Virus record (IMG/VR): IMGVR_UViG_3300036768_001066
Direction: 5' to 3' (one strand)
DNA length: 64,000 nt
DNA from: a virus
Lineage: Duplodnaviria > Heunggongvirae > Uroviricota > Caudoviricetes
The position numbers and the translations under genes were made by a program. Shown piece by piece: positions 8,667-31,778 of this stretch (position 1 is the first letter of the stretch; each line of letters begins with the position of its first letter). The notes below the pieces were generated by a model that saw only the letters and a program-made list of their open reading frames with translations, was not told the origin of the DNA and did not search any database.

Positions 8667-8710
8667 TTGGTGAAGATTTGTATCTCTAAAAAAGGATTTG
8701 ATGTATGATA

Positions 8711-10814: not shown

Positions 10815-11266
10815 TACGCGAGCACTTCTTTGAGCATTTTACTTACGAGGCTCATATCCGCGAGACCCTTGAATTTCTTCGAGAACTCGCCCATGGCTTT
10901 GCCTATGACAGCGTTCGGATTTCCACTCTTGCCCCCAACAGCCACAACTATGCATTCGAGCTCTTTGCGGATCTCATCTTCGGTCATCTGCTTCGGCAAG
11001 AACTTGTCGATATACTCCCGGATCACGGCAAGCTCGCGCCTCTCAGCTTCTGCGCGCTCGTTATCTGCGGCCAAAACAAATGCCTCTATGGACATCTTTC
11101 TCTGTGACTCAAGCGCCCGCAGAATCTTGGACTTGTCGATTTCCTGCCCCGGATTAGCTTTCTCATAATTAGTAACTGCAGTGTTTATAGACCTGATGGT
11201 CTCGAGCCTAAATTTATCACCGCTCTTCATTGCCGCTTTCAAATCGGCCATTATTGTCTCTTTCAT
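10814..11266 (-). CDS. GatB/YqeY-domain protein
   Basis: LKAAMKSGDKFRLETIRSINTAV ... QRKMSIEAFVLAADNERAEAERRELAVIREYIDKFLPKQMTEDEIRKEL ... GKAMGEFSKKFKGLADMSLVSKMLKEVL matches the YqeY/GatB C-terminal domain pattern. The start is taken at the internal ATG (11266) because the longer ORF would overlap the upstream gene by 80 nt. Confidence 0.65.
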   Translation of the reverse strand: MKETIMADLKAAMKSGDKFRLETIRSINTAVTNYEKANPGQEIDKSKILRALESQRKMSIEAFVLAADNERAEAERRELAVIREYIDKFLPKQMTEDEIRKELECIVVAVGGKSGNPNAVIGKAMGEFSKKFKGLADMSLVSKMLKEVLA

Positions 11267-11285
11267 TTCAAATTTTGTATTAAAG

Positions 11286-12200
11286 TTAATCACCGCCGCC
11301 GCCGCATCCGCCGCCGCCACACGAACTACCACACGAACTCGATCCGCCGCCGCCCGAATCCCCTCCACCTGATGATGAGGAACAACTGCTTGAACAACTG
11401 CTGTGACTTGAACAACTGCTGTGACTATGTCCGGAACACGACGAAGAACAGCTCGATATTATTGGTGACGACGAGCATCCACTATTGTTATTATCGTCAT
11501 CTTTCTTCTTTTTTTTACTCGAACACGATGAGTAGGATCTCGTGTACGAAGAGCTTCCGTACGAAGAACCGTAACTCTTGGAATTTCTGGAATTGGAACG
11601 CCTGTTGTTTCTGACGATTGAATTTATTATAGCGGCAACAATAACCCCGCCAAGTATCAACCCTAAAACGAGCATCCATGCTGTGCCGGATGTCATCAAC
11701 AGAACAGAGGAAATTCCGAGAACTGCCCTGACTCCGTTCGCGAACTTCGAGCGTTTTCTGACAGTGTCTACTATAATTTGACGCTCGTCACGCACAACCT
11801 CGTCGCCGCCCCAGATGTCAGATGGCGGAGTCTGTCCGAATTCCACCACGTAGGCTTCCTTAGTTTCCTTGTACACATCACGGAATTTAGCTTCTGCCAC
11901 CTCATTACCGTCACCTGGATTGTGGTGAATCTCGGTTCCGAGAATCCCTGCGCAGAGGTCCTTCCAGTATGATTTGGTATATTGCAGGTGCAGGTGCCAA
12001 ACCTCATCTATGCGTTTGGATGGAGTGACCTCCATAATTGTAGCCAAATACATGAACTTCTTGTATTCTTCAAATGCACGCGCAGCAAGCTCCATGCTCC
12101 ACCCGTTCTCCTTAGCGAGCTTCTTCAAGAAGCTGCGAGGAGCGCTATTGTCGTCCACCATGAACGACGCGAGCTTATCCCAGAGTTGTTTGTTTTTCAT
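11286..12200 (-). CDS. membrane protein: N-terminal conserved domain (WHLHLQYTKSYW motif), one TM helix, Ser/Cys/Gly-rich C-terminal tail
   Basis: TM segment VLGISSVLLMTSGTAWMLVLGLILGGVIVAAII. The tail is CSSSCSGHSHSSCSSHSSCSSSCSSSSGGGDSGGGGSSSCGSSCGGGGCGGGGD. The neighbouring TPM-domain protein has the same tail architecture. Confidence 0.55.
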   Translation of the reverse strand: MKNKQLWDKLASFMVDDNSAPRSFLKKLAKENGWSMELAARAFEEYKKFMYLATIMEVTPSKRIDEVWHLHLQYTKSYWKDLCAGILGTEIHHNPGDGNEVAEAKFRDVYKETKEAYVVEFGQTPPSDIWGGDEVVRDERQIIVDTVRKRSKFANGVRAVLGISSVLLMTSGTAWMLVLGLILGGVIVAAIINSIVRNNRRSNSRNSKSYGSSYGSSSYTRSYSSCSSKKKKKDDDNNNSGCSSSPIISSCSSSCSGHSHSSCSSHSSCSSSCSSSSGGGDSGGGGSSSCGSSCGGGGCGGGGD

Positions 12201-12220
12201 ATTAGGTTTTTAATAATTTT

Positions 12221-13942
12221 TTACCAATCTCCACTCGAGCTCCCACATCCAGAACTACAATCACCAAACGACGATGATGAACAGCTCGACGATGAACAGC
12301 TGCTCGAACCGAAGGAAGAACCGAACGATGAAGAAGAGCTGTTGCGTCTACGCCTGCGTTCCTCTTCCTCCCGCTTACGCTTAGCGTCAGAAATATCGGA
12401 ATCCATGGCCCTGTACGCCGAGTCAAATGCCGACAGTATAGCAAGCGCAGCTGCAGCGTCGACAAGCGGATGGCCCGTTTTTGTGAACCCCGCGTACTTG
12501 GTCTTAGCTTCGGTGAGTTTGCGCTTGGACGAGGATTCCACGTCAGAATCTTTAGACAGACGTTCCGCCTTAGTTATTTTGTTCTTGATGTCGGTTTCAA
12601 AATCCGTCATAACTTTCTCGGCCTTGTTCAATGAGTCTCTTAACTCATAAGGCGAACGTAAGTACGAATTAGACCTGCACAGTATAGAGGTCGCAGAGGT
12701 CGCACACTCGCGTGCCTGTGATATTTTACTGTCCTTCAGAAAATTGACGGCCTTCTCGTACAAGCGCTCGGCCTCCTTGAGATTGCTGTCGATGTACGAA
12801 GGTTCCTTCATGCGGCCGTCCCACACTTCACGCTTGTACTTCTTGGTGATCGAGTCGTACACAACTTTCGCGTCAAGCTGCTGCGATCTAAGCACTCCCG
12901 TCATCCGTGCAATAGAGTTTACCGCATGTTCAGTCTCTGTCGCGTTCTTCATCTTCACTTCATACTCGTGAATCGCATGTGTGGATTCCTTGACGATGTA
13001 TTTCAACCTGGTAAGAGTCTCCTGGAGTTCGAACTCTATGTCGCTGAGCTCCACAACCTCACGGTCAATCTCTTCACAGTCGGTGTTGAACACCTTCCGC
13101 ATGTTGGCCTGGCCGATGTCGTACTTGAATGATTCTATTATAGCTACCGTCGGCTCTGTGTTCCTCTTAAATTTCTTTAACTCGAGAATGTCAGACTTCA
13201 GCTTGGCAACTCTGGCCTTGCGAGCCGCTTCCTCGCGCTCTACCCGTTCGCGTTCCTCGCGCTCGCGTCTCTTTTTGCGGCGGTCGAGTGCTATCAGCAA
13301 TACGATGAAACCTATTATACCTGCAGCCCCAAGAAACCACATAAGGCCGTTGAGAAACGCCTCTTGTCTACGTTCGCTCTCTATCCTGTCTCTCTCCGCC
13401 TGTGCAGCCTGCTCGGCAGCAATTTCGGCCTGAGTCTTCTTATAGTTGGCAAGCATCAACTCGAACTTCTCGTTGCCAAGTTTGGCCATGAAGTCGCTTA
13501 ATAACGCATCCATGCCCTCGTAATATTTTTTCTGCTTGAAGTTCGGTTTAAGCAAGGCGTCACCGCGTCCCTTCGTGTAATAATCGGTCAAGAAAGGCTC
13601 AAGACCGTATCCGACCTCTATACGCCATTTCCTCTCCTTTGCACAAACCAGGAGAAGCAAACCGTTGTTGAGTTTCTTGTCGCCAATGCCCCACTTCTTG
13701 AACAGTTTGTTTCCGTAATCGGCCACATCGTATCCGTCGAGTGTCGGGACAATGGCTATGGCGAATTCGGTGGTAGTCTTCGCCCTGTAGTCGCGTATTT
13801 TCTGATCAAGAGCCACTCTCTCCTCGTACTGGAGGAGGTTGTCAAGGTCTGTCACGTAAAGTCGCGGGTCCTTTTCCGGAAGCTTTTGCGCCCACGCGAC
13901 CGCGTTAAGCAGCACCAGAAGTATCGATATAACTTTGCGCAT
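12221..13942 (-). CDS. TPM-domain (YgcG/TLP18.3-like) membrane protein with coiled coil and Ser/Cys/Gly-rich tail
   Basis: Signal peptide MRKVISILLVLLNAVAWA. TPM block YVTDLDNLL...IAIVPTLDGYDVADYGNKLFKKWGIGDKKLNNGLLLLVCAKERKWRIEVGYGLE. TM LMWFLGAAGIIGFIVLLIAL. Charged coiled-coil region. Tail SSSSSFGSSFGSSSCSSSSCSSSSFGDCSSGCGSSSGDW. Confidence 0.7.
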   Translation of the reverse strand: MRKVISILLVLLNAVAWAQKLPEKDPRLYVTDLDNLLQYEERVALDQKIRDYRAKTTTEFAIAIVPTLDGYDVADYGNKLFKKWGIGDKKLNNGLLLLVCAKERKWRIEVGYGLEPFLTDYYTKGRGDALLKPNFKQKKYYEGMDALLSDFMAKLGNEKFELMLANYKKTQAEIAAEQAAQAERDRIESERRQEAFLNGLMWFLGAAGIIGFIVLLIALDRRKKRREREERERVEREEAARKARVAKLKSDILELKKFKRNTEPTVAIIESFKYDIGQANMRKVFNTDCEEIDREVVELSDIEFELQETLTRLKYIVKESTHAIHEYEVKMKNATETEHAVNSIARMTGVLRSQQLDAKVVYDSITKKYKREVWDGRMKEPSYIDSNLKEAERLYEKAVNFLKDSKISQARECATSATSILCRSNSYLRSPYELRDSLNKAEKVMTDFETDIKNKITKAERLSKDSDVESSSKRKLTEAKTKYAGFTKTGHPLVDAAAALAILSAFDSAYRAMDSDISDAKRKREEEERRRRRNSSSSSFGSSFGSSSCSSSSCSSSSFGDCSSGCGSSSGDW

Positions 13943-13943
13943 T

Positions 13944-14441
13944 TTATCTAATTTTTAAGTTCAGCTCGTCATACGGATCGATTGCAGGCTCGAGCATCGA
14001 CATGGCGGTCTCGAGATCCGCGTACCATCTGAGTATCTTCACGTAATGAGAAGGTAAGAATTTACTTAGGTCCGCGTGCTGCATGACGAGCAAAATTTCC
14101 GAAGACTGTGTCTCCTTATCGCATGCCTCAAATTCTGCCGCGCTCCTTACGCTTGAACCAGATTGTTTAAGATTCCATATACTCTCGAATACCGTGGCCA
14201 CGGTGACTATGTTCGGATCGGAGAATCCGCCAGGTGGCGGTTTAAATTCTGGTAGAGTTGTTGATATTCTTATAGATTCTATCGGGGATAAGTCGGACGT
14301 CTTCGCCCTGACCGTCTGCTTTGGATTCACCAGCTTGGACATAACGGCTATGCCCATAGCCGCGCTGTAGCTCTTTATCTTCCACAGGCCAGGTTGCCCC
14401 GATACGGTGAATACTTCTCTTAGGCTGAATGGTTCTATCAT
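13944..14441 (-). CDS. hypothetical protein (165 aa)
   Basis: Co-oriented ORF. No motif recognised. Confidence 0.45.
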   Translation of the reverse strand: MIEPFSLREVFTVSGQPGLWKIKSYSAAMGIAVMSKLVNPKQTVRAKTSDLSPIESIRISTTLPEFKPPPGGFSDPNIVTVATVFESIWNLKQSGSSVRSAAEFEACDKETQSSEILLVMQHADLSKFLPSHYVKILRWYADLETAMSMLEPAIDPYDELNLKIR

Positions 14442-14574
14442 TTTGATACCAGGATGTCCATTTACGTTTTGTATTAGTTGTGGTTCTCTGCGAACTTCAC
14501 TTTATTCTCGAGCGACATGTTGTCCCATCCTTCCGGTTTCGTTGTTTGTTCCTCCTGTGTCTTGAGCGACTTCA

Positions 14575-15478
14575 TCATCTTGTGCACGAGCGCTCGATCT
14601 GCATCTGGTGGTACGCCTCGTTGGACAGTATGGTCTCTTCCGGATTGTCGTTGAACCAGTTCTCCTTGAATTTTTCCGCCGCTGCTTGGTCAACTACGAA
14701 CACGTTATCCACTTTATTGAGATTGATAACTGCCTGGACCTTGTCCGAATCATAGTGCCAGTTGTGATTATCCACTTTTCCGTCACCCCACTCTATCCCG
14801 CAGTAGATGAACCCGTCGTTCATCAGGCTGGCGTACTGATGATTCTTAGGCGGGGACACGCTCAAATCGAGCAACCTCCGACTCCCGTCTGTGCCATAAT
14901 TCCCATTGTGCTCCTTGCTCCTAATCCTGTTGGCCGTATCTCGGCTCACCGATGACGTGAATCGTGAACCTGCGAATATCGCATCGTGAACCTGCGAATA
15001 TCGCATTCGTGAGGTATGTCGGGTTCGGCTCGGCAAACAAGAAATGATCCACAACTTGCACTGGGTGGGACTCGATGTAGTCGAGCACATCGTAAAGGCC
15101 CTCGAGCATCTGTTTCTCCACGTACTGCAACTTGTACTCCGTTGGTTCAAACTCGCTGCCGCTCGGAAAATGACCGCGCCCCGCGTCATCGGTCGCGGTG
15201 AATATATCCCTGGTGTCAAAGTTGTACTGTAGCACGATCCTCGACTTACCGTCCATCTTGCGGTGAAAACGCTTTCCGTTTACGAACTCATTGCGATCCT
15301 TATCCCAATCATCACCACAATACACCTCCAGAGAGCCAGAGCCGTCCTCGTGCAGGCACATCTCCATGCCGCGCACGCGCATGGACCAGGAATTGATCAT
15401 GACGTCGGCGCATAGCCTGGGGTCGGTTTTTATTCTGGAGACTCTAAGCACGTGCTTATTTTTTATCAATATCGACAT
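14575..15478 (-). pseudogene. hypothetical protein gene split by a 22-bp perfect tandem duplication
   Basis: ORFs 14921-15511 and 14575-15219 overlap in different frames. Both encode the peptide AIFAGSR across the two copies of CGTGAACCTGCGAATATCGCAT (14963-14984 and 14985-15006). Removing one copy joins ...PNPTYLTNAIFAGSR to FTSSVSRDTANRIRSKEHNGNYGTDG... into a single ~300-aa ORF. The N-terminal half of ORF 14575-15219 is Arg/Ser/Cys-rich out-of-frame junk. Confidence 0.5.
14963..15006. repeat. 22-bp perfect tandem duplication (x2) inside a coding region
   Basis: CGTGAACCTGCGAATATCGCAT appears twice back-to-back. The length is not a multiple of 3, so it produces a frameshift. Confidence 0.8.
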
Positions 15479-15662
15479 CGTAAATGAATTCGACGGAGAT
15501 GCCAGGCACATTCCAGTTGCGCATTGATAGCGCGTCCTCGATACGCTTGCGCATGTCGTTGATGCGCTCAGTCAAGCAGTCTCCCTTGAACTCATAATGA
15601 AGCTTGTTGCCGTTTAGGCTACTGAGAGTAGCATCTTTGTCTTCCAGTTTAAAAAATCTCAT
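15456..15662 (-). CDS. hypothetical protein (68 aa)
   Basis: ORF whose 3' end overlaps the start of the disrupted downstream gene. Plausible composition, no motif recognised. Confidence 0.4.
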   Translation of the reverse strand: MRFFKLEDKDATLSSLNGNKLHYEFKGDCLTERINDMRKRIEDALSMRNWNVPGISVEFIYDVDIDKK

Positions 15663-15849
15663 GGTTCGTGCAATTTTATTCCGTTAACGTTTGTCTCTCC
15701 GGCGATAGCTTCTCAAAATGCTGGAACCTGTATTTTCCGGTTGTAGTGGTCTCTGGCACTTGTTGATGGTGGCAAGGGCCACCATCGAAATCGTCCGCAC
15801 CCCTGTAGACATACAGCAGACGAAAATCTTTGGCGTACTCCATCATATC

Positions 15850-16980
15850 CTACTTCTTTTTGACGATGTGAGACAACGCGTTTTTCTCATGCAAATTTGC
15901 AATCAACTCGATGTAGGTACCATACTCCGCGATCTCTTCTGCGCTGTAACCTTCGGTTTCACCGATGCTCTTGAAGTTATTTTGCCAATATTTTATAGAG
16001 TATTTCATGCAGCCGATTTGAATCTCATCTGAGCCCCAATACGACACGTGATGTCTTGATCCGTTGAAGCTGAGAGAGCGCACGATAACGCATTCCTCGA
16101 TGCTCGCGCCGTCGCCGATGATCGTGCCGTCGCCGATGATCGCGTACCGGCTGATTTTCGCGTCCCATCCGATGCTCGCGCCGTCGCCGATGATCGCGCC
16201 GTCGCCGATGCTCGCGCACCGGCCGATTTTCGCGCCTTCGCCGATTTTCGCGCCCCGGCCGATGTTCGCGCGGGGGCCGATGCTCGCGCCGTCGCCGATG
16301 ATCGCGCCGTCGCCGATGCTCGCGCGGGGGGCGATGATCGCGCCTTCGCCGATGATCGCGCGGGGGCCGATGTTCGCGCGGGGGGCGATGCTCGCGCCGT
16401 CGCCGATGCTCGCGCCCCGGCCGATGCTCGCGCCCCGGCCGATGTTCGCGCCTTCGCCGATGTTCGTGCGGGGGCCGATGCTCGCGTCCCATCCGATGTT
16501 CGCGCCGTCGCCGATGCTCGCGCCTTCGCCGATGTTCGTGCGGGGGCCGATGATCGCGCCGTCGCCGATGCTCGCGCGTGGGCCGATTTTCGCGCGTGGG
16601 GCGATGCTCGCGCCTTCGCCGATGATCGCGCCGTCGCCGATGATCGCGCCGTCGCCGATGTTCGTGCCCCGGCCGATGCTCGCGCCCCGGCCGATGCTCG
16701 CGCCTTCGCCGATGTTCGTGCGGGGGCCGATGCTCGCGTCCCATCCGATGCTCGCGCCTTCGCCGATGTTCGTGCGGGGGCCGATGCTCGCGCCTTCGCC
16801 GATGCTCGCGCCGTCGCCGATGCTCGCGCCCCGGCCGATGATCGCGCCGTCGCCGATGCTCACGCGCTGGCCGATGCTAATGCCACGCTTTTTGAACTCA
16901 GCGGAGATGTCGCTGAGTTTATCGTACTCGAATGTTTCCCACCGTGACTTTTCCAGTGTAAAAAGTTTTACCGATTTCAT
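15850..16980 (-). CDS. hexapeptide-repeat (left-handed beta-helix) protein, ~44 consecutive repeats of x-x-[SNIT]-I-G-x
   Basis: Repeats of the form GASIGD / GASIGP / RTNIGE / GASIGW / DASIGP fill ~270 aa, between a short N-terminal region (MKSVKLFTLEKSRWETFEYDKL...) and an ~80-aa non-repeat C-terminal domain. The start is set at the internal ATG 16980 because the longer ORF would overlap the upstream gene. The repeat DNA is visibly GC-richer than the flanks and has strict 18-bp periodicity. Confidence 0.7.
   Translation of the reverse strand: MKSVKLFTLEKSRWETFEYDKLSDISAEFKKRGISIGQRVSIGDGAIIGRGASIGDGASIGEGASIGPRTNIGEGASIGWDASIGPRTNIGEGASIGRGASIGRGTNIGDGAIIGDGAIIGEGASIAPRAKIGPRASIGDGAIIGPRTNIGEGASIGDGANIGWDASIGPRTNIGEGANIGRGASIGRGASIGDGASIAPRANIGPRAIIGEGAIIAPRASIGDGAIIGDGASIGPRANIGRGAKIGEGAKIGRCASIGDGAIIGDGASIGWDAKISRYAIIGDGTIIGDGASIEECVIVRSLSFNGSRHHVSYWGSDEIQIGCMKYSIKYWQNNFKSIGETEGYSAEEIAEYGTYIELIANLHEKNALSHIVKKK
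16064..16900. repeat. 18-bp periodic coding repeat array (GC-rich) underlying the hexapeptide-repeat gene
   Basis: Iterations of cgccgatgctcgcgcc[n]. The spurious long ORFs in other frames (16025-16744 minus, 16064-17140 plus) come from this periodicity. Confidence 0.7.
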
Positions 16981-17063
16981 CCTTATTGGTTTTATTGTAC
17001 AAATATACAATGAATATCTGAACGGGCGCTCAGGCCTGTTCAACTGGTCCCAAGTAACAACAT

Positions 17064-17702
17064 TCAGGGACGGACAGCTACGATTTTGCAACCGTTCTGA
17101 CGTGCAATCTCCAAGATTGGGTCGATGTTGTTCGAACTGATTTGGTTTGTAACGGCCACAACAGAACCATCCTTCAATTTGATGAACTGGTCCGCCTGGC
17201 AGAAGTAACGCTGCTTACCGCTCGCGTTCATCTTGCGGGCCGTGCTTGCCTCGGTGAACACACCGTAGTTGCGCACCAACTCAGAAGGGAAAATTTCAAG
17301 CAACTTCTTGAAACTGCATCCCTGTTTCTCAGCGATGAATTTCACAACGGCCAAAACTAATTTGCCCTTGCGAAATTCCTGTCCGTTGAATTGGTACTTG
17401 GAGAAATCGCGTCCGAAGTTCTTACCTTCCGACTTGTCGGTCTTGGCAGTTTTCTCAACCTCGGCTGCTTTTGCGGCTTTTGCGGCTTTTGCCTTTTCAA
17501 CAGAGGGCATAACTACCGAGAACAACTTCACACTCTTAGCCCCCTTTTGGAAAGTGTCAATTTGTTTACCAAGCTCACCGATAACGGCAAACACTTCGGA
17601 ACGTTTGATACCAGTTGCTTTCTCAATGGCCTTTGCATCGCTCTTCGGGTTCTTAGTTAAGAATGCTGTGACTTTAGCTTTGTTGTCTGTTGTTGTTTTC
17701 AT
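17064..17702 (-). CDS. lysine/alanine-rich putative DNA-binding protein, paralog A (shares a C-terminal ~100-aa domain with 23357-24109)
   Basis: N-terminal region then histone-H1-like AKAAKAAKAAEVEKTAKTDK. C-terminal domain YQFNGQEFRKGKLVLAVVKFIAEK...RYFCQADQFIKLKDGSVVAVTNQISSNNIDPILEIARQNGCKIV aligns with FKFNGIEYGKGPLVHAILTAHVEA...RYFLKESQIIKLADCSIAVCNQFTSDNIQAFLGAARKLGYSI of the paralog. Confidence 0.55.
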   Translation of the reverse strand: MKTTTDNKAKVTAFLTKNPKSDAKAIEKATGIKRSEVFAVIGELGKQIDTFQKGAKSVKLFSVVMPSVEKAKAAKAAKAAEVEKTAKTDKSEGKNFGRDFSKYQFNGQEFRKGKLVLAVVKFIAEKQGCSFKKLLEIFPSELVRNYGVFTEASTARKMNASGKQRYFCQADQFIKLKDGSVVAVTNQISSNNIDPILEIARQNGCKIVAVRP

Positions 17703-17786
17703 GGTCTTGTATTGATTATGGAGTAAAGTTAAGAGGTTTTTCCTATTCCGTAAAAATATTTCGGAAAATACTTACTAACAATTTCC

Positions 17787-17887
17787 GTAACTTATTGATT
17801 ATCAGCAAGATAGAGTATAAATGGAAAAGTCCTGGAAAACTTAATTTCCAGGACTTTTCCATAATGTATTGATAATCAATAAGTTAC
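17787..17887. repeat. nested inverted repeats in a 380-bp non-coding gap
   Basis: Outer 18-bp perfect IR: GTAACTTATTGATTATCA (17787-17804) and TGATAATCAATAAGTTAC (17870-17887). Inner 16-bp perfect hairpin: GGAAAAGTCCTGGAAA (17823-17838) and TTTCCAGGACTTTTCC (17845-17860). TATAAATG box at 17816-17823. Confidence 0.5.
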
Positions 17888-17935
17888 AAGTCACTCACCC
17901 TGAAGCATCTGCCGTGTGGTCACCTTTTGTTATCT

Positions 17936-18056
17936 CCTACGGTGACGGCGTACGCCGAGGTAGGAATCCACAGGTGCAAGTTCAAGGTCGGCGACCGTGA
18001 AGCCCAAGCCAAGACATTCCACAACAACAGGAACCTCGGCGTAGAGCCGCCTACGG
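17936..18056. other. GC-rich structured non-coding element (candidate small RNA or cis-regulatory structure)
   Basis: Local base composition is much GC-richer than the flanks. 12-bp palindrome CGGCGTACGCCG (17946-17957). 11-bp long-range complement TACGCCGAGGT (17951-17961) pairs with ACCTCGGCGTA (18033-18043). Repeated CCTACGG boxes. No ORF with a plausible start. Confidence 0.35.
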
Positions 18057-18080
18057 AAGGACTTGTCCACACAGATTTGT

Positions 18081-18908
18081 TTAAAGATTTTTGAATGCAC
18101 GCCGCACGTCTCTCGTGAACTTGCCGAAGTCTGTGTCGTCGAGTATCTCTGGGAATCGCCACGCGAACCCGCGGTCCATCATGTCCTCCTGGAACTTGAT
18201 GTATGCACCAGGCTCTGGGGTACCGTCCTCCCTGAAGTCATATCCCATGAACCAGAGATTGTTTGCTATGGAAGACGTAGAGTGGTAATCGTGGGATACC
18301 ACCACTATGGTGTTTAAGTCATCAAGATTTGCGACCTCCGTGATGACCTCGCATACCTCTTCAGTCATATTCGGGTCAAGTCCTGAGAACGGCTCATCCA
18401 TCAACAAGAAATTTTCCGAACACAACAACTGCTGAATAATCGCGATACGTTGCTTCTGTCCACCGGATAGTTGCGCCGGATAGAACTTATGCTTGTCGGC
18501 CAATTTGAATCGCTCGAGGTAGAACTCAATCTTATCCTTCTGCTCCGCCTTACTTAAGCGAGTGTTCTTTGCGGCCGCAAGCTGCAAGTTTCCGAGAATC
18601 GAACGATGTTGAAACAACGGATACGCTTGTGCGACTACGCCAACCATGCCAGGATAAACCGGCTTGCCATTTACGAGCACCTCGCCGGTTGTGGGTTTAC
18701 GTAATCCGGAAAGTATGTTGAACAGCATCGTCTTCCCACGACCGGATGGTCCGAGAAATCCGACGATCTGTCCGGTAGTCTTGACAGGACGTACAACGTC
18801 CTTAATCTCGAGATTTATATCTCGCAGGATTAGCTTATCGTCGAGCTTAAGCGAAACATCTGTGACCTTAAGGATAGTCTTTTCGAGTATTTGATATTCT
18901 TGCTTCAT
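18081..18908 (-). CDS. ABC transporter ATP-binding protein
   Basis: Walker A GPSGRGKT. Q-loop. ABC signature LSGGQKQR. Walker B LLMDEPFSGLD. H-loop VSHD. Stop/start overlap with the permease gene. Confidence 0.85.
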   Translation of the reverse strand: MKQEYQILEKTILKVTDVSLKLDDKLILRDINLEIKDVVRPVKTTGQIVGFLGPSGRGKTMLFNILSGLRKPTTGEVLVNGKPVYPGMVGVVAQAYPLFQHRSILGNLQLAAAKNTRLSKAEQKDKIEFYLERFKLADKHKFYPAQLSGGQKQRIAIIQQLLCSENFLLMDEPFSGLDPNMTEEVCEVITEVANLDDLNTIVVVSHDYHSTSSIANNLWFMGYDFREDGTPEPGAYIKFQEDMMDRGFAWRFPEILDDTDFGKFTRDVRRAFKNL

Positions 18909-19702
18909 TTTCTTTCAAGTGTTATGTATGCGTAAGGACAAAGAGTCTTGCGCACGAAGCCAAGCATCCAGTCAAAGAACATACCGAGTATCAAAATCAT
19001 TATCTGGATAGCGTAAACCGCATCGAGGTGGAATACTTTGTTCTGGTCGTTGAGTATCACACCGATACCGCCTTCCGACCGGCATAGGTTCTCTACCATT
19101 GCAAGCATCATCCACGCAATCGCAAAGTTCTGTCGTATCACATCAAGGACCTGGTCCGCCTTTCCGAGTATGATGACTTCCCACACCGTCTCCCACTCAC
19201 TCTTCTTGAGTGTTCTCGCGTAGTCAAGCTCCGCCTTGGTAACACTCGATATGATTGCCGAGATGGACGTAACGTGAAATACAGTTATGCCGAACACGAG
19301 CAGCGCCACCTTCTGTGACGTGGTGTCCTTGCATATAAGGGCAAATAGGAAAGTTAAGCCTATAGTTGTCATGAATCTCGCCTTACCAACGAACGCCGTG
19401 AACGGCCGGAAGAAAGGCATGACTGCCAGGTATGCTATCACCAATGATATGATGGTGGCCCAGAACATTCCCTTAGCGCATAGCCAGATACTCGACAGGA
19501 GCTCTGCGAGAAATCCGTTAGCGAATAAACCCTTGGTAGCTTCCCATATATTTGGTAAACTCGGGAGGAGTTGTGTGTGACTGAACGTCCAGTATATTAG
19601 GACGGTCGCCACCCATATTGTCAACACCAGGAGCTGCTTGTTTTGTTTGAGCTGCTTGTTTGGCGTGAATATGTCTTTGATGAATGCTGTAACTTTATTC
19701 AT
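18905..19702 (-). CDS. ABC transporter permease (binding-protein-dependent inner-membrane component)
   Basis: Six hydrophobic segments. EAA-like loop ELDYARTLKKSEWETVWEVIILGKA. The start is set at ATG 19702 (MNKVTAFIKD...) because the longer frame would run through the upstream terminator. Confidence 0.75.
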   Translation of the reverse strand: MNKVTAFIKDIFTPNKQLKQNKQLLVLTIWVATVLIYWTFSHTQLLPSLPNIWEATKGLFANGFLAELLSSIWLCAKGMFWATIISLVIAYLAVMPFFRPFTAFVGKARFMTTIGLTFLFALICKDTTSQKVALLVFGITVFHVTSISAIISSVTKAELDYARTLKKSEWETVWEVIILGKADQVLDVIRQNFAIAWMMLAMVENLCRSEGGIGVILNDQNKVFHLDAVYAIQIMILILGMFFDWMLGFVRKTLCPYAYITLERK

Positions 19703-19713
19703 GACGAATGGAT

Positions 19714-19741
19714 AAAAAAGAGCCGGTAAAATACCGGCTCT
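19714..19741 (-). terminator. rho-independent terminator (minus strand)
   Basis: Hairpin AGCCGGT-aaaat-ACCGGCT. On the minus-strand RNA it is followed by UUUUUU (top A6 at 19714-19719). It sits right after the stop of the OmpA-like gene and before the permease start. Confidence 0.55.
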
Positions 19742-19746
19742 CAATG

Positions 19747-20145
19747 TTAACGGCCAAGTTTGATTTCAACACGGCGGTTCTTCTTACGACCCGCATCAGT
19801 GTTGTTGTCCCCGATAGGAGTGGTCTCGCCAAAGCCCTGAGCAGACACCTTGTTACGGAATATCTTCTGGTCTTTGTTGATTAACCACTGACGAACCGCT
19901 TCAGCACGTTGCTGTGATAACTGCATGTTCATTCCATCGTCACCCTGATTATCCGTGTGACCCTCGATGGACACGAGGAGGTTCTCTGCGATAATCAAGT
20001 CGTTTGCCAACTGATTAAGAGTAGGGATAGATGCAGGTAAGATGGTGGCGGAGCCGGTCTGGAACTCGATAACGTACGACTTGTTAGACACAAGCTGCGA
20101 CATCTTCTGGTTCTCCGAGAACGTAGGCATAGAAGCCACTGTCAT
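19747..20145 (-). CDS. OmpA/MotB-family peptidoglycan-associated domain protein
   Basis: C-terminal OmpA-like signature: IEGHTDNQGDDGMNMQLSQQRAEAVRQWL...GFGETTPIGDNNTDAGRKKNRRVEIKL. Start ambiguous; the longer frame overlaps the upstream gene. Confidence 0.55.
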   Translation of the reverse strand: MTVASMPTFSENQKMSQLVSNKSYVIEFQTGSATILPASIPTLNQLANDLIIAENLLVSIEGHTDNQGDDGMNMQLSQQRAEAVRQWLINKDQKIFRNKVSAQGFGETTPIGDNNTDAGRKKNRRVEIKLGR

Positions 20146-21491
20146 GTTGGCGTTGTTTTTATTGTTTGTATACACTGACTGCACGTACTCAAGTCCACCA
20201 CCTCCTCGTAAGGGAAGTACGTAGGCATTACATCCGGGTATGCTTTAACACATAGGTCACCAAAAGTAACATACACGGCTTTGTACTTATCGGTGCTTCC
20301 GTTTAAGCCGTAATACTCCGCAAGGTCCGCAAGGTTGAACACGCGGGATCCACCGATTTCGTTTATGTTGCCCTGCGCATCTGTAAATTGCTTACCTACG
20401 AAGTACTGCTGCCAGTCATCAGCCGTCAAGCCAGCGTCTTGGTATATCGCATCCTGCACACGGCAAGCAAATGCCAATGCCGAAGTGTGGGACTTAACCT
20501 GGTCGCCACCTAAACAACCAGCAAGGATGAATTTCTCAACGCTCGCTTTGTTGTCCTGTAACCACTTCTTACAAGCCAACCACGTGTTAGGCATCTGCGC
20601 ACCATTATCCTTAGTCGAGAATACTGTTACACCACCACGACCCTCGAAACAGATTTTGTCTCCCGGAGTCCACGTAACGCAACCGTCCACTGTGACAGTT
20701 GTATCTCGGCCTGTCCTTTTACCATTGATAACGATAGGACGCTTCTCAGTGGTCTTAGACACGTAGATTTGGGCTGCTTTAATGTAGTCATCGATACCCA
20801 TCCAGTTGATGGCCGTAGGGTCGTACGTGGTAGGGTCGTTGTTGACGTCAATACCGTTAAGGTCGGCATACTTCATTAGAATATTCCAGTCGCCGTCACG
20901 CAACACACCAACCCAAAGGGAACCGCGCAATTTCTGCGGGTCTTGACGGAAGGAACCATCCTTATAGATGGCCTTGCCCTCACCGAATGAAGCACCGAAC
21001 GCTGTGAACGCCTGAATAATGTAATCGTCACCGAGTTGTTTTTTGATTTGGTCGTTAAGACCTGCGAGATAAGACGGAACCCCGTCTCCCATCCAAGCAA
21101 TCATGTGATAGCCCTTTGACGAGTTCTTGTTTCCGGAAGCGTAGTCCTGCGCGAAGGCGAACAATTGGTTGCCCTGCTCGGTACAGTTGTTCTGGCAGAT
21201 AAGACGCAATTTAACGCCTTGTTCCTCCATGATAGATCCCTTCATTGTTGAAGGACCACCGTTTGCGTAAGCCACACCGGCCTGCGCGTTCCAACCCATG
21301 ATACCCGCTCTCCATTCTGGAACTGCAAGGGTTGTCATTTGTGTAGTGTCGGGGAGCGCACGCTTTGGCGCGTTCGCGTTCTTGTCATACTGCAGTGGCG
21401 GAAGATCCGCTACCGTAATTTGTCCCGACTGTTTTGTTGGTTTTTGGAACCAGCCGAAGAATTTTGTATCCGACTCCAAGGGTTCCACCAA
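20142..21491 (-). CDS. putative periplasmic substrate-binding protein of the adjacent ABC transporter (assignment tentative)
   Basis: 449-aa ORF upstream of and co-oriented with the permease and ATPase. Mixed alpha/beta composition. No transmembrane segments. The listed start is a TTG. No clear signal peptide was found from either the TTG or internal ATGs, so its role is inferred from position only. Confidence 0.35.
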   Translation of the reverse strand: MVEPLESDTKFFGWFQKPTKQSGQITVADLPPLQYDKNANAPKRALPDTTQMTTLAVPEWRAGIMGWNAQAGVAYANGGPSTMKGSIMEEQGVKLRLICQNNCTEQGNQLFAFAQDYASGNKNSSKGYHMIAWMGDGVPSYLAGLNDQIKKQLGDDYIIQAFTAFGASFGEGKAIYKDGSFRQDPQKLRGSLWVGVLRDGDWNILMKYADLNGIDVNNDPTTYDPTAINWMGIDDYIKAAQIYVSKTTEKRPIVINGKRTGRDTTVTVDGCVTWTPGDKICFEGRGGVTVFSTKDNGAQMPNTWLACKKWLQDNKASVEKFILAGCLGGDQVKSHTSALAFACRVQDAIYQDAGLTADDWQQYFVGKQFTDAQGNINEIGGSRVFNLADLAEYYGLNGSTDKYKAVYVTFGDLCVKAYPDVMPTYFPYEEVVDLSTCSQCIQTIKTTPT

Positions 21492-21593
21492 CGATGATTA
21501 ACGCCAGGAAGAATATTCCCCCATTGTCAATCCTTTGAAAAAGTTACCGATTTTGCTCATAGCACTTTGTTTTTATATTTTTATTTTGTTCCA

Positions 21594-21609
21594 CAAAGTT
21601 ACAAAGTTA
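21594..21609 (-). promoter_or_regulatory. tandem TAACTTTG boxes (match to the Bacteroidota sigma-A -7 element TAnnTTTG)
   Basis: The minus strand reads GTAACTTTGTAACTTTGTGG. A TTCG box lies ~20 nt upstream (minus sense). It sits ~30-100 nt upstream of the start candidates for gene 20142-21491. Confidence 0.35.
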
Positions 21610-21635
21610 CGTAGTTTTTCTGATTTACGAAAATG

Positions 21636-22613
21636 TTATTTAAGTAAGTTGGAAAACTCCGTGTTCTTAGTTCCGCTTGCGAAAACTTCGACACTCGAGA
21701 ATTGCCTGAGGTCATCATCGTTCTCCGGGAGGAATAAGGAAGATCCGTTCGCGATGTATTGGTCGAGTAACTCGGTGCCCTCATTTTCCGTCATCTTGCG
21801 TTCAAGATCAAGTGAAGCCATGATGTTCTTCGAGTTCTTCTCGAATTCGTCAATAGCGGCAATCTTCTGAGACAACGATTCTTCGAACGCGTTAACCGAC
21901 ATGCGGTAGATTTTGGCCTCCTCTGTGTTGCCGTTGGCGAACTCCTCGGCTTGTCCAACAGCCTTGGCCATCTCAGACATGGTCTCGTACTGTGTGCGCA
22001 TGCGGTTCACCTCGTGCTTCAGCTTGTCGATACCGAGGGCCCAGTTGGTCTCAAGACGATCGAGGAAGCTGATATTGGCGTTCATCTTAGCGAGCATCGG
22101 TTTGTACACATCAAGTGTCTGCTTGTCGCTCGATGCGAGACTTGAATGGTGATTTGATAGAGTTTTGTCTCCGAGGTCCTTCGCGGCCTTCGCCTTCCTG
22201 AGATTCTCGTCGATGTTCTTAACCAGTCCGTTCATCTGATTTTCCAGCTTAACCTTCTTACCAACAAGATATGTTTTGCTCTTGCGAAGGTTAGCCAGCT
22301 TCTCGATGAGAGTGTCCACATAGCTGTCCATGTACGACAAGAAATCGAGCTTCACGAAAAAAGCTGTGATCTTGCGGCACAGGTTTGTGTATGACATCCA
22401 GATGAACTTTGGGTTCTTCATGACGTACAGCACAAGCATGGCCAACGGCACGCCTATTCCCAGGATCACCCAGATGTTTGTGAGGAAATCGATTATTGAC
22501 GGTGCGATGTAGTTGAAGAGCTTAATACCTCCCCAGATCAATCCTACCGGGATTGCAAGGCGAAGTACTTTCTCCAGCCAATGCGCTTTTTGCAGTTTAT
22601 CTAACGTTTGCAT
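21636..22613 (-). CDS. membrane-anchored coiled-coil protein (325 aa)
   Basis: Two N-terminal hydrophobic helices (LAIPVGLIWGGIKLF..., IWVILGIGVPLAMLVLYVM) followed by a long charged helical region. Confidence 0.5.
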   Translation of the reverse strand: MQTLDKLQKAHWLEKVLRLAIPVGLIWGGIKLFNYIAPSIIDFLTNIWVILGIGVPLAMLVLYVMKNPKFIWMSYTNLCRKITAFFVKLDFLSYMDSYVDTLIEKLANLRKSKTYLVGKKVKLENQMNGLVKNIDENLRKAKAAKDLGDKTLSNHHSSLASSDKQTLDVYKPMLAKMNANISFLDRLETNWALGIDKLKHEVNRMRTQYETMSEMAKAVGQAEEFANGNTEEAKIYRMSVNAFEESLSQKIAAIDEFEKNSKNIMASLDLERKMTENEGTELLDQYIANGSSLFLPENDDDLRQFSSVEVFASGTKNTEFSNLLK

Positions 22614-22634
22614 TTTTATTTATTTTAGGTTTAC

Positions 22635-23176
22635 TTACTGAATGTACTGCTCGATCTTTGTGGAGTTATCGGAAATCTCCTTCACCATGCGCTCGTACGT
22701 TGCGTTGAAGTCTGCGTGCTTCAACTTGAGACGGTTGGTCTCCTCACCAATCTCAGTTGTCAGCTTGGCGATGGTCTCGCCGTTCTTCATCTTCTTCTCG
22801 ACGAGCTTCTGCATCTCCTCGTCCAGCTTCTGGTTCTCCTCAGTCAGTCTCGCAACCTCGGTCTCGCGCTTGCCGACGGTCTCGTCGAAGCTCTGCTCGA
22901 GCGCGTCCTCAAACTTCTTCTTCTTATCAGCAAACAACCAATGTACGTCTGGGCGCTCTCGGTCAAGCGCTCTTTGGTGCATCCCTGCGCGGCGAACCCG
23001 GCAAAGATACTCACAAGCTTCATCTGCTCTGGAATGGATTTGAGCGCCGGATTTTCGAGTGCGTTGACGAACTCGAAATAATCGGGGCCCGGCAAGTTCG
23101 CCTCTTTGAATACCTCCTTGAAGTATTCTACGAATTCCGGCGGCTCTGTACCACCGCTCAGATTGCTCGGTGTCAC
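22635..23176 (-). pseudogene. coiled-coil protein gene with probable -1 frameshift near an AAG-repeat (two overlapping ORFs 22844-23176 and 22635-22982)
   Basis: The upstream ORF ends in an Arg/Ser-rich out-of-frame-looking tail (RRRSLRTRSSRASTRPSASARPRLRD). In the other frame those same nucleotides encode the protein-like ADKKKKFEDALEQSFDETVGKRETEVARL. The overlap is 139 nt around CTTCTTCTTCTT (22914-22925). Confidence 0.35.
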
Positions 23177-23195
23177 GATAGGAGTTGTGCTTACA

Positions 23196-23324
23196 TTAGT
23201 ACTTTCGAACGAGGGAATACTCTTGGATACTACCTTGCTTGAAAGAGTTCCATGCTCTGCTGAGGGTGTTCGTACCCTTCGATTCGGGCACGAACACCAC
23301 CAGTATTATGAGGAGCATCCACAT
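23196..23324 (-). CDS. small membrane peptide (start taken at MWMLLIILVVFV)
   Basis: The hydrophobic segment sits only in the C-terminal third of ORF 23196-23435. The upstream part is Arg/Gly/His-rich and probably untranslated. Confidence 0.3.
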   Translation of the reverse strand: MWMLLIILVVFVPESKGTNTLSRAWNSFKQGSIQEYSLVRKY

Positions 23325-23356
23325 TTTTGTAAAGTTAGATAAAAAACGGGCTCCTA

Positions 23357-24109
23357 TTACTGCTCTATGGAATAACCAAGCTTCCTGGCCGCGCCGAGGA
23401 ACGCCTGAATGTTGTCGCTCGTGAACTGGTTGCACACCGCGATGCTGCAGTCAGCCAACTTTATTATTTGCGACTCCTTCAAGAAATAACGCTTGCGATC
23501 CTTCGAAATCTCCTGTGCCTCTTCGAGCTTCTTGAATATCCCATAGCTGCGCAGCAATGCGTCTGGGAACGCGAGCTTCATCTGGTCGTGCTTGATGCCC
23601 TTGTTCGCCTCCACGTGGGCCGTGAGAATAGCATGGACAAGCGGGCCCTTGCCGTACTCGATGCCGTTGAATTTGAAGTTCGAGCGGTCGCGGGCGCCCT
23701 TCGGTCTCACGACCTTCGGTGTGAGGATCTTCACCTTCGCTATCCTGTCGCGGTTCACGCTTTTAGGTTTAGCGTCCGTAGGTCCTCTCTTAGAGCGCGG
23801 ACGGTCCTCGTCATCTCCGAAATCCCCCTCGTCTCCGTTGTTGTCGAGACCCGCGAGGATTCTCTCCATCTCTCTTTGAATGAGCTTCTCTTTGTTAACG
23901 CTTGACTTGTTGGGATATTTCTTGAAATACTCGGCAGCAATCGGCTTATATTCGTCAAGTAACTGGAGGTACTCCTCCTTATTGATGGACATTAGCTCAT
24001 GGAACATTCTCCCGATGCCTGAATTTTTTGGTGTGAGGTTTCCCTCTTTGATTTGAGCGATAGTGCCTGCTATCCGCTCCTTTAAGTTTGCTTCCGATGT
24101 TTCTGTCAT
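23357..24109 (-). CDS. putative DNA-binding protein, paralog B of 17064-17702
   Basis: Shares the C-terminal ~100-aa domain with paralog A. N-terminal helical region plus an acidic/basic linker (GDEGDFGDDEDRPRSKRGPTDAKPK). Confidence 0.55.
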   Translation of the reverse strand: MTETSEANLKERIAGTIAQIKEGNLTPKNSGIGRMFHELMSINKEEYLQLLDEYKPIAAEYFKKYPNKSSVNKEKLIQREMERILAGLDNNGDEGDFGDDEDRPRSKRGPTDAKPKSVNRDRIAKVKILTPKVVRPKGARDRSNFKFNGIEYGKGPLVHAILTAHVEANKGIKHDQMKLAFPDALLRSYGIFKKLEEAQEISKDRKRYFLKESQIIKLADCSIAVCNQFTSDNIQAFLGAARKLGYSIEQ

Positions 24110-24526: not shown

Positions 24527-25522
24527 TTACATCGAGTATTTTGAGACGCACAGTCTTTGTCTGACGTGGTCCGCTATATGTTTAACTTTGAATCCGCAAT
24601 CCTTGTACACGACGAACCCCGCGATGGGCACATCCGTCTCAACGCACTTGCATATCTCGGCCATGACCTCGCGCGCCCTCGGGTGCGAGTCCGTCACCGT
24701 AATAGTCTTCACCTTGCCGGAATCGGCCATCTTCGCTACCGAGTTTCCCGGGAGCACTCCATGCGTCGCGACAACATGCACCTCCTTGGCACCTGCCTCG
24801 AGGTACTTCTCGGCCGCACCAATGACGGAACCGCCGGTGCGAATCATGTCGTCGTATATGATGACGATTCGATCCTTCACGTCAGCGTTAACGCTGGTCA
24901 CCTCGGTCTCGCTGCCGCTGATGCGGCGCTTGGTAATAATCGCGCAATTAACTTTCATGTCCTTGGCGAGAGACTCGATCCACTTGGCGCGTCCGGCATC
25001 CGTAGAGCCCAGAACGAAATCGTCTCCGGCAATCTCACGGCAAGCCTCAATAACGAGGTCCTTCGCGTACATGTGAATAGGCTGAACGTTGCCCTCGAGG
25101 TAGTGCGGGAGTCCTTCAGTATGCAGGTCGAGAAACACTATGCGATTTGGTCTTGCTCCGCTCGGAATGGTCGACAACAGCCTCGCTCTCGTCTTGGCCT
25201 TCACGATCTCCCCGGGCTTCAGCGCGCGCTCCATAGTGGAGTACCCGAAGTACGGGATGAACAGCGTGAGCGACTTCGCACCGTGCTTGACGGCAGAGCA
25301 TCCGAGGTCGTACAATTCGAGGGTCTCCTCAGCAGTATATGTGCCTCCGATTATGATGACATCCTTGTCCTCAATATCGGACAGGTTAAACTTGTGGTAG
25401 ATCTCGCCGTCGGCGAAAACTTTTCGTTCCAATCCGCCAGACATAATCGGCGCCTCAACTCTGCGGCCTACTATTTCGCCGAGGAGGTATGCGTAATTGG
25501 TTGTTGAGAAAGCTACGTACAT
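24527..25522 (-). CDS. prs: ribose-phosphate pyrophosphokinase (PRPP synthetase) homolog
   Basis: N-terminal LxxxIxxxLG...FxDGE block (YLLGEIVGRRVEAP...KVFADGEIY). Divalent-cation/ribose-5-P region VFLDLH. PRPP-binding loop IIYDDMIRTGGS. Overall ~320 aa with two Prs-type domains. Confidence 0.85.
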   Translation of the reverse strand: MYVAFSTTNYAYLLGEIVGRRVEAPIMSGGLERKVFADGEIYHKFNLSDIEDKDVIIIGGTYTAEETLELYDLGCSAVKHGAKSLTLFIPYFGYSTMERALKPGEIVKAKTRARLLSTIPSGARPNRIVFLDLHTEGLPHYLEGNVQPIHMYAKDLVIEACREIAGDDFVLGSTDAGRAKWIESLAKDMKVNCAIITKRRISGSETEVTSVNADVKDRIVIIYDDMIRTGGSVIGAAEKYLEAGAKEVHVVATHGVLPGNSVAKMADSGKVKTITVTDSHPRAREVMAEICKCVETDVPIAGFVVYKDCGFKVKHIADHVRQRLCVSKYSM

Positions 25523-26556: not shown

Positions 26557-26739
26557 TTAAGAACCCTTCTTGGCATTCTTAGCTGCCTGGATGTCGGCGC
26601 GGCTCTCTTTGCAGAGAACGGCTATCTCCTGCAGGATTCCGCGCGCACGAGTTCCTGCAGAAGCGTTTCCACTTTCAAACTTAGCCACTTCCGGCTCTAA
26701 CGAAGCTACAAGCTCCTTGATCTTTTCGAACTTTTCCAT
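26557..26739 (-). CDS. small basic histone-H1-like / nucleoid-associated protein (60 aa)
   Basis: MEKFEKIKELVASLEPEVAKFESGNASAGTRARGILQEIAVLCKESRADIQAAKNAKKGS. The xGNxxAGTRAR core and Lys-rich tail match the small histone-H1-like proteins common in Bacteroidota. It has its own terminator. Confidence 0.5.
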   Translation of the reverse strand: MEKFEKIKELVASLEPEVAKFESGNASAGTRARGILQEIAVLCKESRADIQAAKNAKKGS

Positions 26740-31550: not shown

Positions 31551-31778
31551 GGTTATCTTTTTGTTTGTCAATCGGCCTAATATAGGCAAATTTTCGGGTC
31601 CGATCAGCGACGGCTGGAGATTCTTCCACCGCGTAAGTACTTAACCGGTTACAAACCCTGGGGTTTTTGGGATAATTTTTTTATGCGCGTTTCGAACTTT
31701 TGTTTCGGCCGAAGCGCCGTTTCGTCATTTTTTTTTAGGGACCCGCGACAAATGGGCGATCCGCCGGTAATAGATGGT

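Follow-up and report, generated by a model that had tools for sequence, protein, structure and literature searches.

Two proteins of a probable T4-like jumbo phage share a domain of a large uncurated bacterial family with a predicted role in DNA recognition

Genes A and B lie about 6 kb apart on a 64,000-nucleotide stretch of viral DNA (IMG/VR record IMGVR_UViG_3300036768_001066, Caudoviricetes), hereafter the window, and encode lysine-rich proteins that share a C-terminal domain. Judged from sequence and profile searches, this domain is a member of a large, uncurated and mainly bacterial family, whose members are found fused to, or encoded beside, components of restriction and other defence systems. 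On balance we favour, with moderate confidence, the view that the domain is a DNA-recognition module and that A and B are DNA-binding proteins without an effector.

Results

A conserved domain shared by A and B

An earlier, sequence-only reading of the window had proposed that two lysine-rich proteins carry a common C-terminal domain of a novel kind. Both open reading frames (ORFs) were found at the positions claimed, each with an ATG start on the minus strand (Table 1), and the common domain proved to be real and conserved: BLASTP aligned the C-terminal ~140 residues of A and B at 35% identity (E = 3e-20), and identity within the domain itself was 37%. A six-frame scan with the family hidden Markov model (HMM) found exactly two copies of the domain in the window. 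The proposed motif, [FY]xFNGxE[FY]xKGxLV followed by RYF, NQ and G, was present, and its core residues coincided with the top-conserved positions across 181 family domains. In B numbering, K154 was conserved in 97%, R207 in 98%, Q228 in 97% and G190 in 95% of these domains; the most conserved polar residues were K154, R207, Q228, R140 and N227, and the N of the NQ motif was kept in 83%. The same 181 domains are markedly basic, with a median pI of 9.71 (94% above pI 8) and a median net charge of +9. Also as first described were the high lysine content of both proteins, an AKAAKAAKAA tract at residues ~70-80 of A and, at residues ~88-138 of B, a linker that is first acidic and then basic.

Size of the family and its place in existing libraries

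A profile of 18 C-terminal domains was searched against 1.84 billion cluster representatives (clusters at 50% identity), with 1,959 matches at E <= 1e-3, of which 1,167 reached E <= 1e-10. Most of the matched proteins are 150-300 aa long and carry the domain at the C-terminus. Searches of Pfam-A, NCBIfam and PDB sequences with A, B and the domain profile returned nothing for the shared domain, PHROGs gave only a marginal match on the shared region (phrog_13245, E = 0.058 for A), and a Pfam scan of 138 members one by one gave matches in their N-terminal regions only. The earlier reading, which could place the domain in no family it knew, was borne out for these curated collections but not for PADLOC, the one library that recognises the domain. 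The PADLOC model PDC-S57 matched both A (E = 4.7e-14, 50.6 bits) and B (E = 5.6e-6, 24.2 bits), in each case over part of its length only, as model positions ~124-242 of 245 were covered by A residues 86-207 and by B residues 140-249. A second model, PDC-S11, matched the shared domain through its C-terminal part (model positions ~206-344 of 347). PDC-S57 and PDC-S11 are among 145 PADLOC candidates for phage defence that were chosen through guilt-by-embedding in BREX, DISARM or type I restriction-modification (R-M) loci (Payne et al., bioRxiv 10.1101/2024.01.29.577857); neither model comes with a mechanism or a domain annotation. No mention of PDC-S57 was found in the literature searched. The domain was present in 1 of 50,697 phage records and in 1 of 72,556 plasmids.

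Domain architectures and defence neighborhoods

Domain architectures, which are the strongest functional evidence for the domain, were inspected in the best 150 of the 1,959 family matches. A fusion to McrB was seen in Marinicellulosiphila megalodicopiae (locus L031, NZ_AP023087.1), where the domain occupies residues 4-120 (87.8 bits) of an 814-aa McrB protein (7989-10433) that continues as an AAA_5 GTPase (E = 2.2e-13) with GPPGTGKT and MNTADRS motifs. The gene after it encodes McrC (10433-11773; PF10117, E = 2.4e-102), and the pair is located inside a type I R-M locus. In canonical McrB this N-terminal position is that of the DNA specificity domain (PMC11090510). Two further proteins (P0041 and P0042) begin with a PD-(D/E)XK nuclease (GRIDMV...IEFK, of the pattern D...E-x-K) followed by two copies of the domain, and in Dulem virus 37 the domain is split over an annotated PD-(D/E)XK nuclease ORF and the next ORF by an apparent frameshift. 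Other members have a ribbon-helix-helix head followed by one to four copies of the domain (P0040, P0118, P0130, P0154, P0179 and L030), or a Lys/Ala/Pro-rich tail joined directly to it (P0139, P0142 and P0180), and in P0044 (114 aa) the domain stands alone. The commonest architecture, found in Bacteroidota, has a MarR/TrmB/HTH_24-like winged helix that an acidic linker joins to the domain.

The bacterial genes of this winged-helix type have defence neighborhoods of several kinds, including genes for SIR2_2, a PIF1-like helicase and PDDEXK_4; for BrxL, PglZ and GmrSD_N; and for Dcm, RE_BsaWI and Vsr, accompanied by a second Dcm cassette.

Three observations on the bacterial loci are recorded here in their own right. 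The M. megalodicopiae locus is a dense defence island (184-16145) within the type I R-M locus, which holds an N6_Mtase, a YhcG/DUF1016 nuclease, a Methylase_S specificity subunit, an AAA_13 protein, an AAA_15/DUF3696 protein and a MoxR-vWA system in addition to the domain-bearing McrB and its McrC. In 8 of 26 bacterial loci (L008, L009, L010, L011, L014, L021, L026 and L027), a DUF6876 gene (~112 aa in most loci; Pfam E = 4.9e-39) lies no more than a few kb from the gene for the winged helix and the domain. Several Bacteroidota genomes have two copies of the family, which is a hint of carriage on mobile elements.

Predicted fold and comparison with SeqA

Structure prediction, one of the checks that the sequence-only reading had named, gave a confident AlphaFold2 model of the domain (segment of B, 18-sequence alignment; pLDDT 93.2, pTM 0.86). 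The chain begins with a beta-hairpin and goes on through two helices, a beta-alpha unit, a short strand bearing RYF and two further strands that run up to the NQ motif, before it closes with a long helix and a final strand. A Foldseek search of this model against PDB and BFVD returned nothing at E <= 1e-3, SeqA included.

SeqA was considered as a relative through several partial resemblances. The profile-profile alignment of the family C-domain with the SeqA C-domain (hhalign), itself non-significant, places the RYF of the family on RVYF of SeqA and the N of the NQ motif on SeqA Asn150, and the same alignment was seen by eye. In SeqA, Asn150 and Asn152 form the DNA-binding loop (PMC2691817). 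The ribbon-helix-helix subfamily is 168-179 aa long, compared with 181 aa for SeqA, and its N-terminus weakly resembles SeqA-N (BLASTP E = 7e-4; hhalign local E = 1.7e-4, probability 49%; SeqA_N HMM E = 0.009). The Pfam SeqA model did not appear at E <= 1 for A and B, or in the 25 families most often matched by the 138 members. Assignment to the SeqA family (PF03925 C-domain, PF17206 N-domain) was dropped because the alignment of the C-domains was not significant (hhalign P = 0.12); the SeqA-C profile used was a poor one, since the search yielded only sequences more than 93% identical (E. coli/V. cholerae).

N-terminal regions and linkers

The N-terminal halves of A and B had been described as diverging. 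That of A is more than this, being a predicted winged helix homologous to the N-termini of bacterial proteins. The assignment is based on a match to phrog_1687 and on alignment with these homologs (Table 1); Pfam TrmB on A itself scored below threshold (13.2 bits against a cut-off of 25.6). Among the 138 members scanned, the N-termini of the bacterial homologs matched HTH_24 in 17, TrmB in 15 and MarR_2 in 12, with best scores of E = 3.6e-7 for TrmB and E = 2.3e-5 for HTH_24. Homology between A and the Bacteroidota protein P0029 extends over the full length, winged helix included (37% identity over 199 aa, E = 2e-39). Ten close homologs of A were found, some of them on large phage-like contigs. 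The linker of A is basic and Lys/Ala-rich where its Bacteroidota winged-helix relatives have an acidic one; the A-type homologs P0005, P0006 and P0009 have a linker of greater length and basicity. Neither A nor B matched Hc1 (PF07432) or any other histone-like family model in Pfam, and the likeness to histone H1 is confined to the short low-complexity AKAAKAAKAA tract.

In the full-length AlphaFold2 model of B, a folded head and a folded C-domain (pLDDT ~90) are separated by a disordered linker, with pLDDT below 50 at residues 69-75, 85-114 and 117-119. The head is made of three helices (residues 2-22, 32-42 and 44-64; pLDDT about 80-86) and is conserved in 12 B-type proteins. Residues 1-64 gave no Pfam match and no PDB sequence match, and no helix-turn-helix was found in B by Pfam search or in the AlphaFold2 model. 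There are 29 homologs of B. Its C-domain is 54% identical to the C-domain of bacterial P0029 (E = 1e-39), and the N-terminal heads of these two proteins are unrelated.

The 378-bp gap upstream of A contains nested perfect inverted repeats (17787-17887), with outer arms of 18 nt (17787-17804 and 17870-17887) enclosing an inner hairpin that also has 18-nt arms (17821-17838 and 17845-17862). As RNA this segment would fold with -50.8 kcal/mol (z = -8.7). Its role may be that of a terminator or insulator following the ABC ATPase gene; alternatively, it may serve A as an operator. Rfam gave nothing above the gathering score around the A and B genes, this segment included, and a scan for sigma-70 promoters and terminators gave counts that were not above those of shuffled sequence.

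Kinship of A and B

A and B had been described as two diverged paralogs. They do share the domain, but they did not arise by a recent local duplication, which is ruled out as each is nearer to other family members than to its partner in the window. In a neighbor-joining tree the common ancestor of A and B spans the entire family sample. Given this deep split, and the closer relation of each to a bacterial homolog, A and B represent two sub-lineages held in one genome. At other loci no second copy of the domain was detected within +/-10 kb, except on the window's own contig and for one weak second match in locus L009. B-type genes were found at 2 IMG/VR loci and 5 metagenome loci, which are too few for a census of co-occurrence.

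The B-type gene is directly downstream of the PRPP synthetase gene (prs) both in the window and in a related phage contig (L003), and A-type genes were found in contexts other than the prs neighborhood.

The phage and its exposure to restriction

The window comes from a very large contig of phage-like character, and proteins identical to A and B are recorded on a contig of 373,759 bp. The window encodes a DnaB-like helicase, SbcCD, ribonucleotide reductase, a T4-type RNA ligase, an AAA ATPase and a metallophosphatase. In the syntenic contig L003 the gene order is GT2, RNA ligase, AAA, Metallophos, Hc1, Prs and the B-type gene, and ~4 kb beyond the last of these there is a T4 Gp23-type capsid gene with an S77 prohead protease. 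From the very large contig, the gene content of the window and the capsid and protease genes of L003, we take the source to be a T4-like jumbo phage. Bacteroidota are the likely host phylum, since the bacterial homologs of A and B are overwhelmingly from this phylum (e.g., Chitinophagales, Flavipsychrobacter). A and B belong to a leftward block that takes up positions 1 to ~31,000, in which every gene is on the minus strand and of an early (replication, nucleotide metabolism) or auxiliary kind.

Several short palindromes are missing from the window. CTAG does not occur in the 64 kb, where dinucleotide shuffles predict 174 +/- 12 occurrences and a Markov model 73. The window likewise lacks GATATC (~17 expected), CATATG (8.6 expected) and ATTAAT (7.3 expected). 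For GATC the depletion is mild (observed/expected 0.66), and the window showed no Dam gene. This pattern looks like extreme avoidance of restriction sites, and the complete avoidance of CTAG and GATATC suggests that the phage DNA is open to restriction and has no chemical protection. The window yielded no genes for DNA modification.

Hypermodification of the phage DNA was considered as a rationale for a reader of modified DNA and was rejected, as the transferases of the window look glycan-related and the avoidance of CTAG argues for exposure. These transferases fall into two clusters, at 31683-35503 (+) and 42448-49997 (-), which encode two GT2 proteins (one with Methyltransf_24), a GT10/GT25 fusion, GT11, two FkbM-type methyltransferases, a sulfotransferase with a peptidoglycan-binding domain and Glyco_trans_1_2. 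They look like a pathway for phage glycan synthesis or decoration rather than for DNA modification.

Other features of the window

The features are listed in Table 1. No BREX, DISARM or type I R-M genes were found beside A and B, and the neighbors in the window are an ABC transporter, PRPP synthetase and a hexapeptide-repeat protein. The ABC-transporter-like cassette between the two genes (18081-21491, minus strand) is unusual auxiliary cargo. The hexapeptide-repeat gene (15850-17091, minus strand) encodes a left-handed beta-helix protein of 413 aa whose sequence is almost all G[DE]GA[SI]IG repeats (Pfam Hexapep, E = 6e-49); it is locally GC-rich (0.555), and its repeats yield spurious long ORFs at 16025-16744 (-) and 16064-17140 (+). 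About 2.5 kb from B, a 60-aa gene (26557-26739, minus strand; MEKFEKIKELVASLEPEVAKFESGNASAGTRARGILQEIAVLCKESRADIQAAKNAKKGS) carries the annotation Hc1 (PF07432, histone H1-like nucleoprotein) both on the identical contig and in L003, and is followed by a hairpin and a T-run; its product is a second candidate DNA-condensing protein. A gene resembling homing endonucleases, with GIY-YIG and NUMOD3 (40381-40887, plus strand), is located in the lowest-GC stretch of the window (0.41 at 40001-42000).

Table 1. Genes A and B, their parts, and other annotated genes of the window
Feature	Coordinates	Strand	Description	Evidence
Gene A	17064..17702	(-)	212 aa, ATG start, pI 9.9, 15.1% lysine; winged helix, K/A-rich linker and shared C-terminal domain	
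A residues ~8-62	17517..17681	(-)	MarR/TrmB-like winged helix-turn-helix	phrog_1687 (MarR family), E = 8e-4; alignment with N-termini of bacterial homologs
A residues ~63-92	17427..17516	(-)	Basic Lys/Ala-rich linker EKAKAAKAAKAAEVEKTAKTDK, histone-H1-like low complexity	Seen in sequence
A residues 93-208	17079..17426	(-)	Shared C-terminal domain, predicted DNA-reader module	Family HMM, 145 bits, E = 3.9e-44
Gene B	23357..24109	(-)	250 aa, ATG start, pI 9.3, 11.6% lysine; three-helix N-domain, disordered acidic/basic linker and shared C-terminal domain	
B residues 1-64	23918..24109	(-)	Conserved three-helix N-terminal domain, motif G..TPKKSGIGKMF...Y..LL.EYKPVS.EYF	AlphaFold2
B residues 65-134	23708..23917	(-)	Predicted disordered linker, acidic DNNGDEGDFGDDED then basic RPRSKRGPTDAKPKSVNRDRIAKVK...	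pLDDT
B residues 135-249	23363..23707	(-)	Shared C-terminal domain, predicted DNA-reader module	Family HMM, 160.6 bits, E = 5.8e-49
573-aa protein	12221-13942	(-)	TPM phosphatase domain	
Cassette ATPase	18081-18908	(-)		
Cassette permease	18905-19744	(-)		
Cassette OmpA-domain protein	19747-20184	(-)		
Cassette 449-aa protein	within 18081-21491	(-)	No Pfam match, possibly substrate-binding protein	
Ribose-phosphate pyrophosphokinase	24527-25522	(-)	PRPP synthetase	
RNA ligase	29933-31174	(-)	T4 Rnl1-type	

Discussion

Effector-less DNA-binding proteins as the favoured reading

The charge of the domain, its confidently modelled fold and above all the company that it keeps in bacteria suggest that it would be a compact, strongly basic alpha/beta module of ~115 residues for the recognition of DNA, of either a sequence or a modification state, which in bacteria appears to be combined in the same way as other restriction specificity heads. 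A and B would then be effector-less versions of this arrangement, with neither a nuclease nor an NTPase. In A, the winged helix may serve as a second interaction element, followed by the H1-like Lys/Ala linker and the reader; in B, a three-helix head, possibly oligomerising, would be joined through the long disordered acidic/basic linker to its own reader. Such a layout would let each protein bind and bridge or coat DNA in the style of SeqA, and it is for this reason that we propose for A and B a DNA-binding role during infection, as nucleoid-associated or regulatory proteins of the phage. The nucleoid-associated or transcription-modulating role put forward by the sequence-only reading agrees with the evidence in so far as it is DNA-associated, but it is one option of several, and the informative context turned out to be that of conflict systems.

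Several points weigh against this interpretation. Within the set of architectures inspected, the fusion to McrB was seen once and fusions to nucleases in few proteins. The commonest form leaves the winged helix as possibly the sole DNA-binding element, with the C-domain as a sensor or an oligomerisation module. The PADLOC models are candidates only, named by embedding, and the alignment with the C-domain of SeqA did not reach significance (P = 0.12). DNA binding by members of the family is inferred, and no candidate binding sites were identified in the window.

Other explanations

It is unlikely, in our judgement, that A and B act instead as an anti-restriction shield by reader mimicry, in which they would occupy, or compete for, the targets on phage DNA of the McrBC-like and nuclease-fused relatives of the host. 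The domain does occur in McrB-McrC, in PD-(D/E)XK effectors and in defence islands of the Bacteroidota, to which the host probably belongs; B has a C-domain with 54% identity to a bacterial copy; the loss of CTAG (0 against ~174) and GATATC (0 against ~17) from the 64 kb points to strong restriction pressure on the phage; and the phage versions have no effector domain. However, the absence of an effector is not specific to the phage, as most bacterial members are also effector-less winged-helix-plus-domain proteins, and the window, with its glycan-like transferases, yielded no DNA-modification genes that would create targets for type IV restriction.

A and B as one-component transcription regulators would be a rather improbable alternative to DNA recognition by the shared domain. 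Here the winged helix of A (or a partner, for B) would bind DNA, the C-domain would be a ligand sensor or oligomerisation module, and the bacterial relatives would control neighboring R-M or defence operons in the way of C-proteins or BrxR. The prevalence of an N-terminal MarR/TrmB/HTH_24-like winged helix followed by the domain, the position of such genes at the edges of R-M and BREX loci and the large nested inverted repeat upstream of A are all consistent with this. It accounts poorly for the domain being found alone (P0044), in tandem arrays of 2 to 4, with a basic tail only and at the N-terminus of McrB, for the lack of a helix-turn-helix in B, and for a net charge of about +9 with conserved K, R, N and Q residues in place of a hydrophobic pocket. 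Also rather doubtful is the broader proposal that the domain, as a very remote relative of SeqA-C, defines a widespread and unrecognised class of readers of DNA state (methylation or another modification) in the heads of defence enzymes of Bacteroidota and other bacteria, and that the phage would use two effector-less copies of this reader of its host to mask or mark its DNA by reader mimicry.

We regard it as very unlikely that A and B are morons equivalent to PDC-S57, a phage-borne defence or superinfection exclusion function that would guard the infected cell from competing phages. Jumbo phages commonly carry defence-like cargo, A and B are among auxiliary genes (ABC transporter, PRPP synthetase, hexapeptide-repeat protein), and the HMMs of PDC-S57 and PDC-S11 do match them. 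The match to PDC-S57 is nevertheless confined to its C-terminal half (positions 124-242 of 245), the PDC systems are themselves candidates, and neither A nor B has an effector domain. The position of the B-type gene next to prs is kept in related phages, so that it looks like a core gene rather than cargo.

That A and B are true SeqA-like proteins, with a remote homolog of SeqA-C that reads hemimethylated or newly replicated DNA and so sequesters or organises replicating phage DNA, is equally remote in our estimate: the SeqA-sized ribbon-helix-helix subfamily with its SeqA-N-like terminus and the non-significant alignment of the RYF and NQ motifs with RVYF and N150 speak for it, but the C-domain alignment gave P = 0.12, the Pfam SeqA model is unlisted for A and B and among the 25 families shown for the 138 members, neither protein has a SeqA-N domain, and GATC is only mildly depleted (0.66) in a window where no Dam gene was seen.

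Significance

If the favoured reading of A and B as DNA-binding proteins holds, the domain would define an uncurated DNA-recognition family of at least ~2,000 clusters at 50% identity for which Pfam and NCBIfam offer no model, the PDB no related sequence and the solved folds no close match. It would also give the first functional lead on the PADLOC candidates PDC-S57 and PDC-S11, and would add a new type of head to the specificity repertoire of McrBC and nuclease systems. A T4-like jumbo phage lineage, probably infecting Bacteroidota, keeps effector-less copies of the module, which could be new nucleoid proteins or a new counter to restriction; reader mimicry as anti-restriction would, if true, be a strategy not described before. 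Being small (~115 aa) and predicted with high confidence, the domain is amenable to electrophoretic mobility shift assays and crystallography.

Comparison with known systems

Modular DNA specificity domains common to restriction systems, regulators and phages are of a familiar kind (PMC11090510, PMC4738411). This particular domain has no curated model or solved structure, and effector-less phage copies of it are not described in the literature searchable here.

In one homolog, that of M. megalodicopiae, the domain has the same position and presumed role as the heads of known McrB proteins (ADAM/DUF3578 in E. coli McrB, YTH and EVE in others), although it shows no sequence relation to DUF3578, EVE or YTH (no Pfam match). 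Its architectural position suggests that the domain may recognise modified DNA. In contrast to McrBC, A and B have no GTPase or other NTPase, and no McrC is encoded nearby.

A similar pattern of domain combinations is known for RAMA and HARE-HTH, which are predicted readers of modified DNA (Iyer, Zhang, Aravind, PMC4738411), are fused to restriction-type nucleases, McrB-like AAA+ proteins and other DNA-binding domains, and are linked to R-M loci (PMC4738411). No Pfam match to RAMA or HARE-HTH was listed for A and B at E <= 1 or in the 25 most frequent families of the 138 members. Unlike these domains, the present one has no methyltransferase fusions among the members inspected, and the likeness is one of deployment and not of demonstrated homology.

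PDC-S57 and PDC-S11 resemble A and B in the C-terminal half of both HMMs, and the bacterial homologs adjoin BREX, R-M and other defence genes. The N-terminal parts of the two models are unlike those of A and B, which are also phage-borne and not embedded in a defence system.

The similarity of the domain to SeqA stays under the thresholds customary for homology, and its predicted model adds a beta-hairpin at the N-terminus and one more beta-alpha unit. The heads of A (winged helix) and B (three helices) are not SeqA-N, and the family ranges over Bacteroidota and phages, whereas SeqA belongs to Dam-positive gammaproteobacteria. SeqA is not the family to which the domain is assigned, but it is taken as the closest structural analogue and a possible remote relative. 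A and B share with SeqA a predicted layout in which an N-terminal element, for self-association or as a second DNA-binding part, is joined by a flexible linker to a DNA reader at the C-terminus.

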